From assembly GCA_002099625.1 (NCBI GenBank), contig GCA_002099625.1_4857.1: a stretch of DNA of 64,000 nt, one strand, 5' to 3'. Position 1 is the stretch's first letter. The number at the start of each line of letters is the position of its first letter. The translations under genes and the position numbers were made by a program. The notes under the pieces are model-generated. The model ran no database searches. It was not told the DNA's origin and saw only the letters and a list, made by a program, of their open reading frames with translations. This DNA comes from Escherichia coli (lineage in GTDB: Bacteria; Pseudomonadota; Gammaproteobacteria; Enterobacterales; Enterobacteriaceae). Of the stretch, positions 1,069-5,455 are shown one piece after another.

Positions 1069-1229
1069 GTTGCTTTCCTTCTTACTACTATTGCTGCTTC
1101 TATTGGTAGTCCACGACATATCCCTCGTGGGTGGGTTCGGCGTGTAACCGAATAAGTTTTTCTGTTCCCAGGGCAACGCACCAGGCTTAAGTGATTTAGT
1201 TGGCTAACTAGGAACAGAAAAGGGAGAAC

Positions 1230-1440
1230 AAACCAGGGCGCGAGGTGGCTCTGGACGGATGCGTAAGAAAAACCCAAACGGCCCTGGTCTGTAATTTGGC
1301 CCGAAGTCACCGTGTCGGAGGACAGCCCATGCAGGTAGGCGGCAATGGACACGGTGACCGCGGAAGTGGTTCGTGTTATCCTTGACCCGTGTGTGGATAC
1401 GCGTCTTATTTCGAATGCCTTCGGGATAAGGATAACACAA
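1230..1440 (-). ncRNA. Candidate structured stable RNA downstream of the tRNA cluster
   Basis: No credible ORF; 11-bp inverted repeats gtcaccgtgtc/gacacggtgac (1306-1316/1348-1358) and gtgttatcctt/aaggataacac (1373-1383/1428-1438), plus ccagggc/gccctgg. Confidence 0.3.
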
Positions 1441-1442
1441 AT

Positions 1443-1518
1443 TGGCGACTCTGGCAGGATTTGAACCTGCGACATATGGATTAACAGTCCACCGTTCTAC
1501 CAGCTGAACTACAGAGTC
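1443..1518 (-). tRNA. tRNA-Asn (anticodon GTT)
   Basis: Reverse complement folds as a canonical cloverleaf: acceptor gactctg/cagagtc, D-arm gttc-agctggta-gaac, anticodon loop ctGTTaa, T-arm gcagg-ttcaaat-cctgc, encoded CCA. Confidence 0.85.
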
Positions 1519-1526
1519 TTAAAGAG

Positions 1527-1602
1527 CGAGCATGTGACGGGATTCGAACCCGCGAAATATCCGATTATGAGTCGGGTGTTAATTCCTCTAACTTCACTGC
1601 TC
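1527..1602 (-). tRNA. Atypical tRNA-like gene, anticodon CAT (Met or Ile2), possible pseudo-tRNA
   Basis: Good T-arm gcggg-ttcgaat-cccgt and anticodon loop ctCATaa, but acceptor stem pairs only with a bulged A, position 8 is A not U, C27-A43 mismatch, no encoded CCA. Confidence 0.4.
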
Positions 1603-1604
1603 TT

Positions 1605-1674
1605 GCTTTGACCGGTCTCGAACCGGCGACTTTCCTCGAAGAGGCTGCTCTACCTACCTGAGCTACAAAGCCAT
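1605..1674 (-). tRNA. tRNA-like element with truncated anticodon arm
   Basis: Canonical 5' acceptor and D-arm (ggctttg-ta-gctc-aggtaggta-gagc) and T-arm (gccgg-ttcgaga-ccggt), but only about 19 nt between D- and T-arms; anticodon arm reduced to cctc-ttc-gagg hairpin. Confidence 0.3.
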
Positions 1675-1679
1675 TGTTC

Positions 1680-2710
1680 ATGGCATCATGATAGTTACAC
1701 TCAACGTACCACACCCCTACTGGTTTCCGTTTCGGAGGACTTAACCAGACACCATACGTCCAAGGTCGACGCTTAGGTGTGTTATCAGTTGCCTGACTGG
1801 AAATCTCTTACGAGACGTCTACGTTGAACCGGCAAGCCGGCCATGATGTGAAGATGGGGGAACGCCCAGGCTTCCGCCCAGTCGAGTGAGGTACGAATCC
1901 TTCACTCCTGTCATCACTGATGGTGACAGCGCTCCCATTGTAAGGTGCCGGTGCATCCCGGCGTGTGTTAGTGCATTCAGCTCCCTCGGGCTTATCTGCG
2001 GCAACACGTTGCCCGGCGCACCGACATATACCACAGTAACCTCGTAAAGTCACTCTGGTATTGTTCGTTGCATACTACTAAGTTATCACGTAAACGATTT
2101 CACCACTTCCAATAATTAACCTAAATTCATTTCTGAATGCGGGTGATGGACTTCTTCTTCTGAGCCTGGCCGTAAGGTCAGGTCTTAGCGTCTCCAAGCA
2201 CCACCCGCTATCACGTACATTCGTGGCGTACCGGCCGTATGAGGTACCGCGCCTACGGTGACACACAGTCACCCTAACACTGGGAACTCAATCCCATTCG
2301 GTTATCAGATTGTGGATTTACAGGCGTAGCGTGGCGGCTTAATGGGCCGGTGCTTGCCTGTCCCCTAGGGACGGTTGTCGTGGAGACGCCAGTCTGTAAG
2401 TGGGGCCCTTGCGGGAAAACCCATCGCCTGTAAACCAAACATGATTGAATACCCAGAACCGGACGTTGGAAATCAACATCCTGATGTACTGGAGTATTTC
2501 ATGCATAAACGTGTCTCGTATCGAATGAGGTTATGACCGGTCAGATACCCAGCATCCTGTACAAGCGACCTGGTGCTTTGTGTACCTGGCTGCTACGGAT
2601 TTATCGGCTTACCGTAGGTCTAAGCTACTACCGGCTCATGCGGGACATCAACCCGCACAATCTGAGTAAGTATCACGGCTCGAATAGGGTTAGTGGGCCG
2701 AAGCCCACTG
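1680..2710 (-). other. About 1 kb of GC-rich non-coding DNA, candidate structured RNA
   Basis: Only short ORFs (60-81 aa) without ribosome-binding sites; flanked by tRNA-like genes and a small CDS in the same orientation; hairpin gggccgaagcccac near 2695. Confidence 0.25.
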
Positions 2711-2711
2711 T

Positions 2712-2954
2712 TTAGCCAGCGTTGAACGATTCATGAACGACGGTCCCAGCAGGATAGTGCGTAGTACCGATAAGAGTAACGGTCAGGGTAAGCCCTTCAT
2801 CCCAGCGCTCTTTCGGTAACCAGCGGCAGTCCATCCAATGACCACAGTCGGGAGGAATTGCACACGCGGCTTGCTCCGTAGGAGCCGCCACGATTATGGA
2901 ATCAAATTCATCATACCCGATATCGTCAGTTCGTTCTAGCAAGTACAAATTCAT
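2712..2954 (-). CDS. Small hypothetical protein (80 aa, Cys/His-containing)
   Basis: ORF 2712..2966; GGAGAA ribosome-binding site precedes ATG at 2954 (MNLYLLERTDD); track start is a TTG. Confidence 0.4.
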   Translation of the reverse strand: MNLYLLERTDDIGYDEFDSIIVAAPTEQAACAIPPDCGHWMDCRWLPKERWDEGLTLTVTLIGTTHYPAGTVVHESFNAG

Positions 2955-3018
2955 GTTGTTCTCCAACAGTTGACAAATCTGTGTCTTCTGTGTTAAACCT
3001 GAATTCGTTGGCTAAAAG

Positions 3019-3094
3019 TGGCGGGGGCACGAGGTTTCGAACCTCGAACCTTCGGTTTTGGAGACCGGTGCGCTACCAATTGCGCCATACCCCC
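3019..3094 (-). tRNA. tRNA-Trp (anticodon CCA)
   Basis: Reverse complement gggggta-tg-gcgc-aattggta-gcgc-a-ccggt-ctCCAaa-accga-aggtt-cgagg-ttcgaaa-cctcg-tgccccc-g-cca; closely resembles E. coli tRNA-Trp; C27-A43 mismatch. Confidence 0.85.
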
Positions 3095-3188
3095 CAGAAT
3101 TCTTTAAACGTGTTTATACGGATGCGCTACCCCGTTATCGCAGGCGATTGATGGGGTCAAGCTTGCGTGCTTCTGACTCCCGCATGAT

Positions 3189-3680
3189 TCACCTCCGTAG
3201 TTCGTAAGTGCTAATCTCACCACCGGTATAGATATCGCATTCGGACGCAATCTCAACAGCACGAACCGCATTCGCGCCCATCTTCATCGCACCCAACGCG
3301 TACTCGTAACCGCTTCCGGTTGCCAGAGGTGGTGTGGCTTCACTCCACCACAACGACACGTCGTCTTCACGCTTCCCACCGACTATCGCTTTCCCTGAGG
3401 CCAGAAGCATCAGGAAAGTAAAATCCATCTTCGCAGGTAACTGCGAGCTTTGTGTTAACCCCTTGTAGCCGGGTCTCAAGCGGACCGTTTCCAGCAGGGC
3501 CAATTGTCCTGTGATGTCGCCGCTTACCCCGAACACCACAATTCGTTCACCGGTAATCCACCACTCCTCGTCGGGAGGACAGACGAATAACTTCTGGGTA
3601 TTCAGGTTGCAGATATTCGACCCACGGGTTAACTGGCCGTCAGCAGCTAAGACTTTTCCATCGAACGCTATCGTGGTCAT
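3189..3680 (-). CDS. HslV/proteasome beta-like N-terminal-nucleophile hydrolase
   Basis: N-terminus MTTIAFDGKVLAADGQLTRG matches the HslV/proteasome beta start (Thr1 nucleophile exposed after Met removal; TTI...VLAADGQ); GGAGAA ribosome-binding site before ATG at 3680. Confidence 0.6.
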   Translation of the reverse strand: MTTIAFDGKVLAADGQLTRGSNICNLNTQKLFVCPPDEEWWITGERIVVFGVSGDITGQLALLETVRLRPGYKGLTQSSQLPAKMDFTFLMLLASGKAIVGGKREDDVSLWWSEATPPLATGSGYEYALGAMKMGANAVRAVEIASECDIYTGGEISTYELRR

Positions 3681-4626
3681 GATTTAATTCTCCGTTTGGT
3701 TTATCATACCTCACGCAGAATCTGTAAATTTTAATCAGCCAGGTACCGTCGTTTCTCAACGGGAGTACCCACCCCTCTCGTCTGTTCCGAGCCGGCAAGA
3801 TATGGACCAACCTCCTCATCGGAGTTATCCCCCAAGTCTGCGGTTCTACACGCAGACCCCTTTTCGACGCAACGCCGAATTCGAATCAGTTTTGGCCCGA
3901 CGCCAGAGCGGAATCAGCGATAACTATCGGAGGTAAGTTCAACGACGTCTCTCCGCTGCCCAGTCCTCTGGCGCTGCCACGGTCAACTCGGATTTTGTCA
4001 TGGGTGCGCAGTCGACTTTCTCGACACTCTCGCAAACCGAACTACGCCCGACGTAGCACCGTCGGCAGGTCGGTTATTTACCGAGTACCTGAATGGGTGG
4101 TGATTGTCGGAATCCCCGCCGACGCTCACCGGTTCTGTTCCACGGCGAAAGTTTTCCAGAACATAATAAATCACGCAGTGTTAGATTGCGCTTTGTCGAA
4201 GACACCACGGTAGGTATTTTCGAAAAAGCGTCCTGGGTAACAATCCCAGGACTTGGAGCCCTAGCGTGCAGGGTTTAAAAGTGATTGGACCATTGGCGCG
4301 GTCAATCGCTATTCGCATATAACAACAAACTCACGTAATCAAAAAATTACCGGCTCGAGGCGTAGGCGTCCAGGAGCCGGTGAGTCACACAGCAGTGAGT
4401 CCCTCTGCGGGGATTTTCGTGGAGCTTGTCGTTGGAATAAAAATCCGTCCCCGGACGGGTTGGTGGTGTGGGTCGACTTGTCAGAGTCTGCCGTCCAGGG
4501 AGGCGGCCACCGAAGCTATGGGTTTTGGACATCGAGTGGTGGTCTGAACACACGATAGGGAAACCACGTAAAAAATACACAGGGTACCCAAACCAGGACG
4601 TCTGTCCGATCACGATCTCTTAATAA

Positions 4627-4797
4627 GGATCACGCGCGCGCCCGCACGCGTTTTAAGATCTTAATATATTAATATATTTATTTATATAAATAATTATAAT
4701 AATTAAATATAATACCTAAAGGTATTATTATATTTAATATTATTATATATTTTAAAAGATCCTGGAGGATACGGGTGTGCGCACGCGCACGCGTATA
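4627..4797. repeat. AT-rich imperfect palindrome (about 100 bp, >95% A+T) flanked by alternating CG/CA GC-rich blocks
   Basis: Left clamp cacgcgcgcgcccgcacgcg (4631-4650), AT tract 4651-4760 centred on aatacc-taaa-ggtatt (4711-4726), right clamp gtgtgcgcacgcgcacgcgt (4776-4795); GATC at both inner borders. Confidence 0.7.
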
Positions 4798-4888
4798 AGG
4801 AAAGGGTCTTCGACCCGATCCACAGGATCGATCTAAAAAACAATCTAAGTGATTGTTTTAAAAAGAAATTTTGAGAATTAGATTAAAT

Positions 4889-4911
4889 TATCCCCTAAGG
4901 GGGATTTTTAG
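4889..4911 (+). terminator. Terminator-like hairpin in non-coding region
   Basis: atcccc-taag-ggggat followed by ttttt; no annotated upstream plus-strand gene, so it may end a small RNA. Confidence 0.3.
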
Positions 4912-5394
4912 AGTGAGTTAACAACCCAAAGAACTCGTAAGTAACCGACAGTGTGTGTCGGTTACAGAACGATCCAGTTTTCACCCAGACATGGCACGAA
5001 GTGCTACCCAACGTGTGATCGTCGTCGCGGCCGGCGACCGTCGTCCCGGAACCGAAACGGGAATGGCTCTCTCGCGCTCTCAGCGGCCCGCTGGCGAGAT
5101 TTTCCGGTAGGGGGAACCCAAGTGTACTGGGTTGGGTATAAATCTCTTTCTAGCGCCTTCTAGAGCGTTTTTAATAACTGGTTAAAAAACATACAATCCT
5201 GAATCCCCATTCCCCGTATTTCCTCGCCCCGACAAAAATAAATTCTCTGTCTCGATACATAACCCCCTCTAAAACGCACGTAACCGACCCTAGAAAACGA
5301 TAAACTGCCAAAAACGAGCTACCCTACATCCAGACCACTTAATCGTTTTCTGACGTCTCCTAGACCCCCTTTAACCGGCCGGTTAAAAAAATAA

Positions 5395-5447
5395 TCAAAA
5401 AAAAAATAAAAAAAATAAGATTGGCGTACTCCCCGAAGAGAGTACGC
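5395..5447 (-). terminator. Rho-independent terminator
   Basis: Hairpin gcgtactc-cccgaaga-gagtacgc (5424-5447) followed on the minus strand by a long U-run (A-run 5390-5420); immediately downstream of CDS 5456..5965. Confidence 0.55.
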
Positions 5448-5455
5448 CTAGTGAC

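Follow-up and report, generated by a model that had tools for sequence, protein, structure and literature searches.

Conserved tRNA-like and structured RNAs predicted in the tRNA island of an SPN3US-like jumbo phage

A putative RNA operon with tRNA-shaped units

We analysed a 64-kb stretch of DNA (contig GCA_002099625.1_4857.1, hereafter the window) that carries an RNA island on its minus strand. On balance, the island (1266-3094) probably represents one RNA operon that would be cut at its tRNA and tRNA-like units into tRNAs and stable non-coding RNAs. As judged from the sequences, one of these units, X, has retained a tRNA body that lacks a decoding loop throughout the divergence of the genera that carry it, a second, tRNA(CAU), is a conserved non-standard decoding tRNA, and the flanking stretches that appear non-coding are modular folded RNAs. 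The window belongs to a Seoulvirus (family Chimalliviridae), an SPN3US-like jumbo phage infecting Salmonella; its region shares 99.3% identity with Salmonella phage MET_P1_082_240, and with SPN3US and relatives the identity is 95-98%. Related loci were found with an 80-aa protein encoded in the island (2712..2954) as the anchor. The tRNAs, tRNA-like units and structured RNA modules of the island are as follows.

1266..1438, minus strand: M3 trailer, after tRNA-Asn, with hairpin A at 1373-1438 and hairpin B at 1305-1359
1443..1518, minus strand: tRNA-Asn(GTT), canonical; called by ARAGORN; Rfam tRNA model 75.6 bits; CCA encoded
1526..1602, minus strand: tRNA(CAU), non-standard; Rfam tRNA match at 1529-1600, 31.9 bits; not called by ARAGORN
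1603..1672, minus strand: X, tRNA-shaped element; Rfam tRNA model 35.7 bits; not called by ARAGORN; ends in ...GCAA
1855..1936, minus strand: M2, 82-nt cloverleaf-like RNA, with ACAAU before and CCA after
2135..2362, minus strand: M1, structured RNA of ~230 nt, from a 19-sequence alignment and RNAalifold; no Rfam match
3019..3094, minus strand: tRNA-Trp(CCA); called by ARAGORN; Rfam tRNA model 65.6 bits; CCA encoded; C27·A43

All RNA genes of the island lie on the minus strand, including every ARAGORN call and every match of the Rfam tRNA model. ARAGORN called only tRNA-Asn(GTT) and tRNA-Trp(CCA) in the whole window, and the Rfam model (gathering threshold 29 bits) gave four matches, namely Asn, Trp, X and the CAU gene. 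The initial annotation had placed an RNA island at this locus with canonical Asn and Trp genes. The island is borne out by these calls together with the covarying modules described below, and both tRNAs are indeed canonical by ARAGORN and by their Rfam scores.

X, a predicted tRNA body without a decoding loop

X abuts the 5' side of the CAU gene with zero spacer (CAA|GAGC or CAA|GAAC) in 12 lineages, which belong to Seoulvirus, Machinavirus and Erskinevirus, with one unclassified contig (L021). In the window, X has G1 opposite A72, acceptor pairs 2-7 and normal D and T arms, and the anticodon position is occupied by a 13-nt hairpin, GCCUC-UUC-GAGGA, with a 3-nt loop. X scores above the threshold of Rfam RF00005 (35.7 vs 29 bits) but lacks the 7-nt anticodon loop, U33 and purine 37 of a decoding tRNA. 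Because the anticodon loop is absent, X cannot decode. In class 1 (which includes the window, SPN3US, Proteus phage 7, SPAsTU, pSal04 and L021) the D arm is normal, and in class 2 (which includes pEa_SNUABM_29, pEa_SNUABM_4, ChrisDB, EaH2 and Caitlin) a hairpin of 5 bp and a UCGGU loop takes its place. A joint MAFFT alignment of both architectures put the 5' strand of the acceptor in the wrong place, and the pairs were counted by an anchored script.

All 12 lineages have G1 opposite A72, a G-C pair at 2-71 and a terminal A73. Positions 3-7 form Watson-Crick or G·U pairs throughout, with substitutions on both strands, as in GGCUUUG/CAAAGC, GGCUCCG/CGGAGC, GGUUUCU/AGAAAC and GGCUACU/AGUGGC; double changes were found in five of the six acceptor pairs 2-7, and the T stem covaries. 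Pair 3-70 was C-G or U-A in 12/12, not the G3·U70 of transfer-messenger RNA (tmRNA), and ARAGORN detected no tmRNA in the window. The anticodon region forms a stem of 4-6 pairs with a 3-8-nt loop lacking U33, and the arm of SPAsTU is structured and ~40 nt larger. In pSal04, ARAGORN called X "tRNA-Pro(cgg)"; a 7-nt loop can be drawn there, but with C33 and C37. The initial manual fold was thus upheld, as no lineage had a standard 7-nt loop with U33. It had given X perfect acceptor, D and T arms and an anticodon arm collapsed to a short hairpin; the D and T arms and the hairpin stand, but the acceptor is imperfect (G1·A72). The suggestion that X is not a decaying pseudogene also held, because acceptor pairs 2-7 and the T stem are kept paired by double substitutions across the 12 lineages. 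This long retention rules out recent decay.

The leader ACAAU, with U at -1, directly precedes G1 in both X and M2. In Asesino and L012, which have no X, it stands before the CAU gene, and the motif is not enriched across the window. A derivation of X from the other array tRNAs was considered and rejected, as the comparison returned generic D-arm and T-arm matches only. Genes of 93-121 nt labelled "tRNA-Ile(aat)" were seen in Asesino (L004, 2695-2815) and also in L010 and L016, with normal acceptor, D and T arms. These elements (Asesino, EaH2, Huxley) carry a big structured insertion at the anticodon, larger than the arms of X, and by their predicted folds they add a second type of non-decoding tRNA scaffold to the arrays.

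A conserved non-standard tRNA(CAU) and the ordinary tRNAs

The CAU gene was as first described, with a CAT anticodon, a bulged acceptor and A8: its anticodon loop is CUCAUAA, A occupies the position-8 equivalent, position 27-43 is C·A and the 3' strand of the acceptor has a one-base bulge. The acceptor helix consists of eight stacked pairs (GAGC.../...GCUC) followed by a 2-nt linker and a 4-bp D stem, and CCA is not encoded, unlike in the Asn and Trp genes. The loop has the seven nucleotides, U33 and purine 37 expected of an anticodon loop. Orthologues were found in all 12 lineages compared, with uniformly low Rfam tRNA scores of 31-46 bits. When the 12 sequences were aligned, 93% of the cells of the cloverleaf were paired vs 28-51% with the partners slid, and compensatory double changes were present in 9 of 19 pairs. 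Position 27-43 was C·A in 12/12, even where the adjacent pair 28-42 switches from C-G to U-A. The bulged base was found in six of the 12 lineages (window included) and was missing from the other six, among which SNUABM4 and ChrisDB have an unbulged acceptor but with a U·U mismatch.

The gene had been regarded as aberrant, which did not stand: the low score, the 8-bp acceptor and C27·A43 are family traits seen in all relatives. Because its oddities recur in all relatives and its stems covary, the alignment indicates that the gene is not damaged. The mature form may keep seven or eight acceptor pairs, as the extra pair may be trimmed. In three Machinavirus lineages (L007, L008, L012) the gene has a variable arm of 22-24 nt; with this arm and the 8-bp acceptor, the CAU tRNA resembles tRNA-Sec/Ser in outline. 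The isotype is probably tRNA-Ile2 or tRNA-Met, and depositors have labelled the orthologues Met, Ile or Ile2. We take the core of the anticodon stem to resemble that of E. coli ileX. AUA makes up 9.6% of the Ile codons in the open reading frames (ORFs) of the window, which is close to host usage and gives no argument either way for this tRNA.

The anticodon arm CCCGA-CUCAUAA-UCGGA with C27·A43 was found in at least 120 unrelated viral contigs (L027-L146, IMG/VR; 66 distinct sequences). These are mostly phages of ~45 kb in which the gene is annotated as tRNA-Met and looks functional, and the mismatch appears to characterise a phage tRNA family that is widespread. The scan, with its >120 mostly unrelated phages, was no help in finding X. 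In tRNA-Trp, position 27-43 is C·A in the window lineage only and U-A or C-G in relatives. The mismatch, which had been noted as common to the Trp and CAU genes, is present in both, but the Trp copy is lineage-private and the CAU copy invariant, and from this distribution the sharing is read as a coincidence.

Structured RNA modules M1, M2 and M3

M1 is predicted to contain P0/P1 (CCAUUAA loop), an invariant P2 hairpin (UGGGA-UUGAGU-UCCCA), a covarying P3, a variable P4, and P5, a long closing helix with an inner hairpin and the purine-rich strand AGAAGAAGAAG. Its core (2135-2372) is 70-79% conserved across four genera. At all loci examined, the tRNA array follows M1 either immediately or after a few hundred nucleotides, and the gap that holds M1 is always annotated poorly or not at all. 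RNAalifold on the 19 sequences gave 43 predicted pairs, 16 of them compensatory; 95.6% of cells were paired vs 29-46% in slid controls, and the covariation score was 0.292 vs at most 0.069; 0/500 shuffles reached 0.292. One pair is G·U in 17/19 sequences and would be C·A on the other strand, and the minus strand is therefore taken as the RNA strand. A covariance model found exactly one M1 per phage and none in more distant relatives, and a metagenome scan added ten full-length copies, four on contigs of ~240-250 kb and the rest on short fragments. Eleven motif matches in bacterial genomes were rejected as chance, because none was M1 by the covariance model (best 14 bits). M1 matched no Rfam family, including GOLLD, ROOL, group I introns, RNase P, 6S and tmRNA. 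A promoter-like motif, TATATATG, occurs near M1 in Machinavirus and is absent from the window, and an AT-rich, TATAAT-like sequence lies just 3' of M1 in relatives.

M2 has a closing stem of 7-8 bp (GGGAGCG/CGUUCCC) and three arms; a T-loop-like AUUCGUA caps one of them and a GGAA tetraloop another. Across four lineages, five of its 28 pairs were compensatory and none was broken. M2 is also present in SPAsTU, pEa_SNUABM_29 and Asesino, where its position in the array varies. In the M3 trailer, hairpin A has an 11-bp stem, GUGUUAUCCUU/AAGGAUAACAC, and hairpin B an 11-12-bp stem, GUCACCGUGUC/GACACGGUGAC, under the conserved apex GCCGCCUACCUGCAUGGGCUG. The hairpin B stems of the window, SPAsTU, pEa_SNUABM_29 and L012 (11-16 pairs) are wholly different in sequence yet complementary. 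A conserved GGGUUUUU run downstream of hairpin B, at 1266-1275, may mark the end of the operon.

The flanking stretches fold better than dinucleotide shuffles by minimum free energy (z = -5.6 for 1177-1442 and z = -3.6 for 1673-2660), and so do their opposite strands. Together with the covariation across related phages in M1, M2 and M3, these scores support the view that the flanks are structured, as had been proposed, and the 11-bp stems reported there were located at 1373-1438 and 1305-1359. The flanks were further described as GC-rich, and their GC content is raised, but only modestly (52-55% vs 49% for the window). Similarly, 1680-2710 is structured RNA, but it cannot be called wholly non-coding, as a candidate 55-aa ORF lies at 2339-2506.

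Searches of the window and nine related loci against Rfam, at gathering and at permissive E-values, found tRNA as the sole family. Weak matches to YrlA, Plastid-ycf2 and L17-leader were rejected as tRNA cross-matches or noise. No tRNA remnant was detected in 1673-2720 with the Rfam tRNA model, even at E = 10. A minus-strand scan from 3100 to 1177 found no terminator-like site, and a sigma-70 promoter scan gave no match inside the island. Our literature search found no description of X, M1, M2 or M3 RNAs.

Spacers, leader segment and a small ORF

The remaining segments of the structured region are the following.

1673..1853, minus strand: spacer S_d, lineage-specific, with predicted hairpins; absent from SPN3US and all other genera
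1942..2134, minus strand: spacer S_c, AT-rich at its start, then two hairpin domains (predicted, strongly conserved); Seoulvirus only
2339..2506, minus strand: candidate 55-aa ORF, open in 15/15 lineages, with 55-70 codons across lineages
2507..2711, minus strand: leader segment, predicted hairpins upstream of the small ORF; conserved within Seoulvirus

S_c has 55 pairs in a 4-sequence RNAalifold prediction, mostly invariant and four of them compensatory, and shows little variation. S_c may contain the leader of the tRNA array or an internal promoter, for which the AT-rich start is a candidate. Homologues of S_d were found by distant blastn in 26 near-identical Seoulvirus records only. The leader segment has a GGUAGGU..CCGU motif in common with other genera.

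The 3' half of the small ORF overlaps the 5' helices of M1, so that P0 and P1 enclose its last codons and its UAA lies in the P1 loop. P0 is ACAGGC/GCCUGU in the window and GAAGGU/ACCUUC in Erskinevirus. Substitutions by codon position were 129/80/157 in the N-terminal half, including CGG-to-AGA Arg changes, so that the coding signature there is weak. In the C-terminal half they were 43/35/46, and the conservation of that half is explained by the RNA structure. The peptide has conserved Trp residues and matches the uncharacterised PHROG 26199 (E = 1e-4), and the alignment of lineages revealed no evident Shine-Dalgarno sequence. The ORF is possibly translated. We did not accept as coding the further ORFs (up to 142 aa) within 1680-2339 and 1177-1475, because their tblastn matches track nucleotide conservation, fall in multiple frames and are split by indels.

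Annotation and turnover of the locus

Between the flanking genes, the MET_P1_082_240 record annotates only tRNA-Asn, tRNA-Trp and one small coding sequence. In other GenBank records, parts of the island are labelled "hypothetical protein", "tRNA-OTHER", "tRNA-Ile" or "tRNA-Asp", or are unlabelled. At the matching locus, relatives have 8-12 tRNA genes on the same strand, vs three in the window lineage; they include SPAsTU and pEa_SNUABM_29 (Seoulvirus), pSal-SNUABM-04, pEa_SNUABM_4 and ChrisDB (Machinavirus), Asesino and phiEaH2 (Erskinevirus) and pEa_SNUABM_11 (Wellingtonvirus). This comparison indicates that the array was reduced in the window lineage. In a blastn map, the tRNA blocks absent relative to SPAsTU are clean indels separating conserved modules.

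tRNA-Asn is absent from SPN3US and Proteus phage 7. SPN3US also lacks 1677-1935, which comprises M2 and S_d, and the deletion is flanked by the direct repeat ACAATGG. We observed that the two copies, at 1671-1677 and 1935-1941, are the leaders of X and M2 and form the exact ends of the missing segment. Because the repeat marks these ends exactly, the deletion suggests recombination between the two leaders. In Salmonella phage 1252 (L180, PP695294), an insert of ~590 bp replaces tRNA-Asn (646-1237, corresponding to window 1444-1514). It encodes a 179-aa HNH_3/NUMOD4 homing endonuclease that is 55% identical to a gene inside the tRNA array of pEa_SNUABM_29, and homing endonucleases probably drive the indel turnover. 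The island thus appears to be a zone of fast gain and loss, which makes the elements that are retained informative.

The 80-aa protein gene (2712..2954, minus strand) lies between tRNA-Trp and the structured region and is conserved, with a mean column identity of 70% over eight homologues. It belongs to PHROG 5444 (E = 1e-36), a family of unassigned function. Distant relatives in which this protein is 36-43% identical (L022-L026) have no tRNAs and no M1. The flanking genes, at 3189-3680 and 253-1176, encode an HslV-family peptidase homologue (PHROG 1040) and an uncharacterised protein (PHROG 17697), neither with an obvious link to RNA.

Beyond them, 3681-5455 is a stretch of 1.77 kb without an ORF longer than 90 aa, unannotated in relatives, whose minus strand has many hairpin and U-run sites. 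It includes an AT-rich trough at 4650-4950 (GC 0.29) with sigma-70-like promoter matches, and patches at ~4681-4805 and ~3772-3883 are 77-83% conserved in other genera. The GenBank records of SPN3US, Proteus phage 7, Lh1B and SPFM17 all start inside it. This stretch could hold more small RNAs, or a replication or packaging signal.

Discussion

Two standard tRNAs, one conserved non-standard tRNA and at least four conserved modules of structured RNA make up the minus-strand island. The locus holds several independent RNA families whose covariation is well supported and whose function is undescribed. We consider that the island would be transcribed as one or two polycistronic precursors, in which host enzymes would process each tRNA-shaped unit by RNase P cleavage at the 5' end, 3' trimming and CCA addition. 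The products would be tRNA-Trp, tRNA-Asn and the non-standard decoding tRNA(CAU), together with M1, M2, X and the M3 trailer as stable structured RNAs. X would act as a processing and stability unit that sets the 5' end of tRNA(CAU) and the 3' end of the upstream RNA, because it retains the acceptor helix, T arm and D/T elbow, the parts that the enzymes recognise. X itself would persist as a small tRNA-like RNA, its variable "anticodon" hairpin being a tolerated or exchangeable insert. We counted it in favour of this reading that all tRNA and tRNA-like matches lie on the same strand with no intervening minus-strand terminator. From these features we infer co-transcription, RNase P cleavage, stable products and a function for M1, M2 and M3. 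In T4, the tRNA region has dimeric tRNA precursors, adjacent units have little or no spacer between them, and some tRNAs have no encoded CCA. The T4 tRNA region also yields the small stable RNAs RNAC and RNAD, or species 1 and 2 (PMC3014915, PMC9697503). In ΦKZ, phage tRNAs depend on the non-virion RNA polymerase (PMC12571901), and by analogy the island would be transcribed inside the phage nucleus.

Several points weigh against this processing scheme. An acceptor-T minihelix is enough for processing, which leaves the D arm, the anticodon-type stem and the invariant G1·A72 unexplained, and tRNA(CAU) would serve as an RNase P substrate without X. The TATAAT-like sequence 3' of M1 in relatives suggests that M1 and the tRNA array may be separate transcripts. 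Parts of the island appear dispensable in some hosts, because SPN3US lacks M2, S_d and Asn and phage 1252 has an endonuclease gene in place of Asn. Finally, no expression, end-mapping or cleavage data for Seoulvirus were found in the literature.

A broader proposal, which we regard as tentative and rather doubtful, is that SPN3US-like phages carry undescribed RNA families (M1 with or without a small basic peptide, and the X, M2 and insertion-bearing scaffolds) that would act in trans on host translation or tRNA surveillance, or would move or mature the RNAs of the phage nucleus, with X as a dedicated non-decoding mimic (G1·A72, A73, intact elbow). In another explanation, X, and perhaps M2 and the insertion-bearing RNAs of relatives, would titrate or divert a host factor that recognises the tRNA body, and processing would be a lesser role. 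The factor could be a tRNA-targeting defence nuclease, an enzyme of tRNA modification or CCA addition, or an aminoacyl-tRNA synthetase of the kind that does not read the anticodon. Because the whole L-shape, G1·A72 and A73 exceed what punctuation needs, such a decoy has to be weighed: the D/T elbow, the anticodon-type stem, the invariant G1·A72 and A73 go beyond processing, several distinct tRNA-like scaffolds recur in these arrays, and phage tRNAs have been discussed as a counter to tRNA cleavage by host RNases (review PMC13282480). The role has no known target, however, and without an anticodon loop X cannot decoy anticodon nucleases, the best-known class; we consider this explanation unlikely.

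M1 and the small ORF could also form a translation-coupled, attenuator-like or dual-function RNA that controls the tRNA array in cis. We keep this role for M1 under consideration because the order of ORF, M1 and tRNA array is fixed. The ORF is open in all 15 lineages, codon positions give a weak signal across its N-terminal half, the covarying P0 and P1 contain its stop codon and 3' half, and the Trp residues of the peptide are conserved. On the other side, there is no evident Shine-Dalgarno sequence, no alternative terminator and antiterminator folds were identified, M1 is far larger and more ornate than known attenuators, and in Seoulvirus the next tRNA is ~450 nt away from M1, with M2 in between. 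We consider such a regulatory leader improbable.

The remaining two explanations are poorly supported. According to the first, the lineage shrank an array of 10-12 genes, with the two odd genes as pseudogenes and the long stretches as residual spacer. The larger arrays of relatives (8-12 tRNAs vs three here) agree with this, as do the differences between close strains (deletions of Asn, M2 and S_d and the homing endonuclease insertion) and the restriction of S_d to 26 near-identical records. The peculiarities of X and the CAU gene are nevertheless the same in genera ~30% diverged, with stems maintained by compensatory changes; M1, M2 and M3 covary, 1673-2720 holds no tRNA remnant even at E = 10, and the tRNA blocks that SPAsTU has in addition are cleanly inserted or deleted between modules that are conserved. 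Decay is very improbable. A DNA-level element, with the palindromes as a replication origin, packaging or protein-binding sites, is scarcely credible, for although both strands fold better than shuffles and the neighbouring ORF-free 3681-5455 holds the record ends of several relatives, the opposite strand would have C·A in place of the conserved G·U pairs, the stems change sequence freely while keeping complementarity, and the modules have the same strand and leader motifs as the tRNAs.

Phage tRNA islands are usually annotated gene by gene, and weak tRNA matches are dismissed as pseudogenes. Here, cross-genus comparison indicates that conserved folded RNAs, for which Rfam has no family, account for two "bad" tRNA genes and for ~0.6 kb that had gone unannotated, which corrects the annotation of many GenBank records at this locus. 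The island is a compact natural example of a tRNA body retained without its decoding loop. Because the phage transcribes in its protein nucleus but the tRNA-processing enzymes are those of the host, the island is also a tractable system for where and how phage RNAs mature.

Comparison with known systems

mascRNA and menRNA, from the 3' end of eukaryotic MALAT1 and NEAT1, are cloverleaves with a reduced anticodon arm located 3' of a long structured RNA, whose ends are defined by RNase P cleavage. X, with its 13-nt anticodon hairpin, similarly comes after ~1 kb of structured RNA, and it has a conserved U-1 leader (ACAAU|G) and a zero-spacer junction. The systems differ in that they belong to different domains of life with no homology or Rfam match, X is followed by real tRNAs, and cleavage here is only predicted. 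Engineered tRNA scaffolds and YrlA have, like X of SPAsTU and the Asesino/EaH2 element, a tRNA body with a foreign hairpin at the anticodon loop. The YrlA model (RF02553) gave 24.7 bits vs a threshold of 69, in a match spanning two adjacent tRNA genes, which does not identify a YrlA here. Its topology is also opposite, as the 5' and 3' ends of YrlA form its long, Ro-binding stem, and X has no known link to a Ro-type protein.

Acceptor helices of eight base pairs are found in tRNA-His (G-1:C73), tRNA-Sec and allo-tRNAs, and the CAU gene is alike in having eight stacked pairs before the 2-nt linker. Unlike tRNA-His and tRNA-Sec, it has a CAU anticodon, not GUG or UCA, and its helix is bulged in half of the lineages.

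As in the island, the T4 tRNA region combines a phage tRNA cluster with small non-tRNA RNAs of unexplained role (PMC3014915, PMC9697503). Unlike T4, the island has a true cloverleaf without an anticodon loop and a multi-helix RNA of ~230 nt, and it belongs to a nucleus-forming jumbo phage. A comparison with RNAC, made by eye on a partial sequence, showed no obvious similarity to any island module. GOLLD and ROOL are structured non-coding RNAs located beside phage tRNA islands, and tRNAs sometimes lie in the GOLLD linker (PMC12286853). By covariance model, GOLLD, ROOL and mascRNA are not homologous to the modules. GOLLD and ROOL gave no match in the window at E-values up to 5-10 and none in the nine related loci. 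M1 is also smaller (~230 nt vs about 580 and >800 nt), and the island is modular rather than one giant conserved RNA; homo-oligomeric RNA cages, a feature of GOLLD and ROOL, are not known for the modules. Like them, M1 lies next to or near a phage tRNA array in every locus examined, across four genera, and it thereby joins GOLLD, ROOL and T4 RNAC/RNAD on the short list of phage RNAs associated with tRNA islands.

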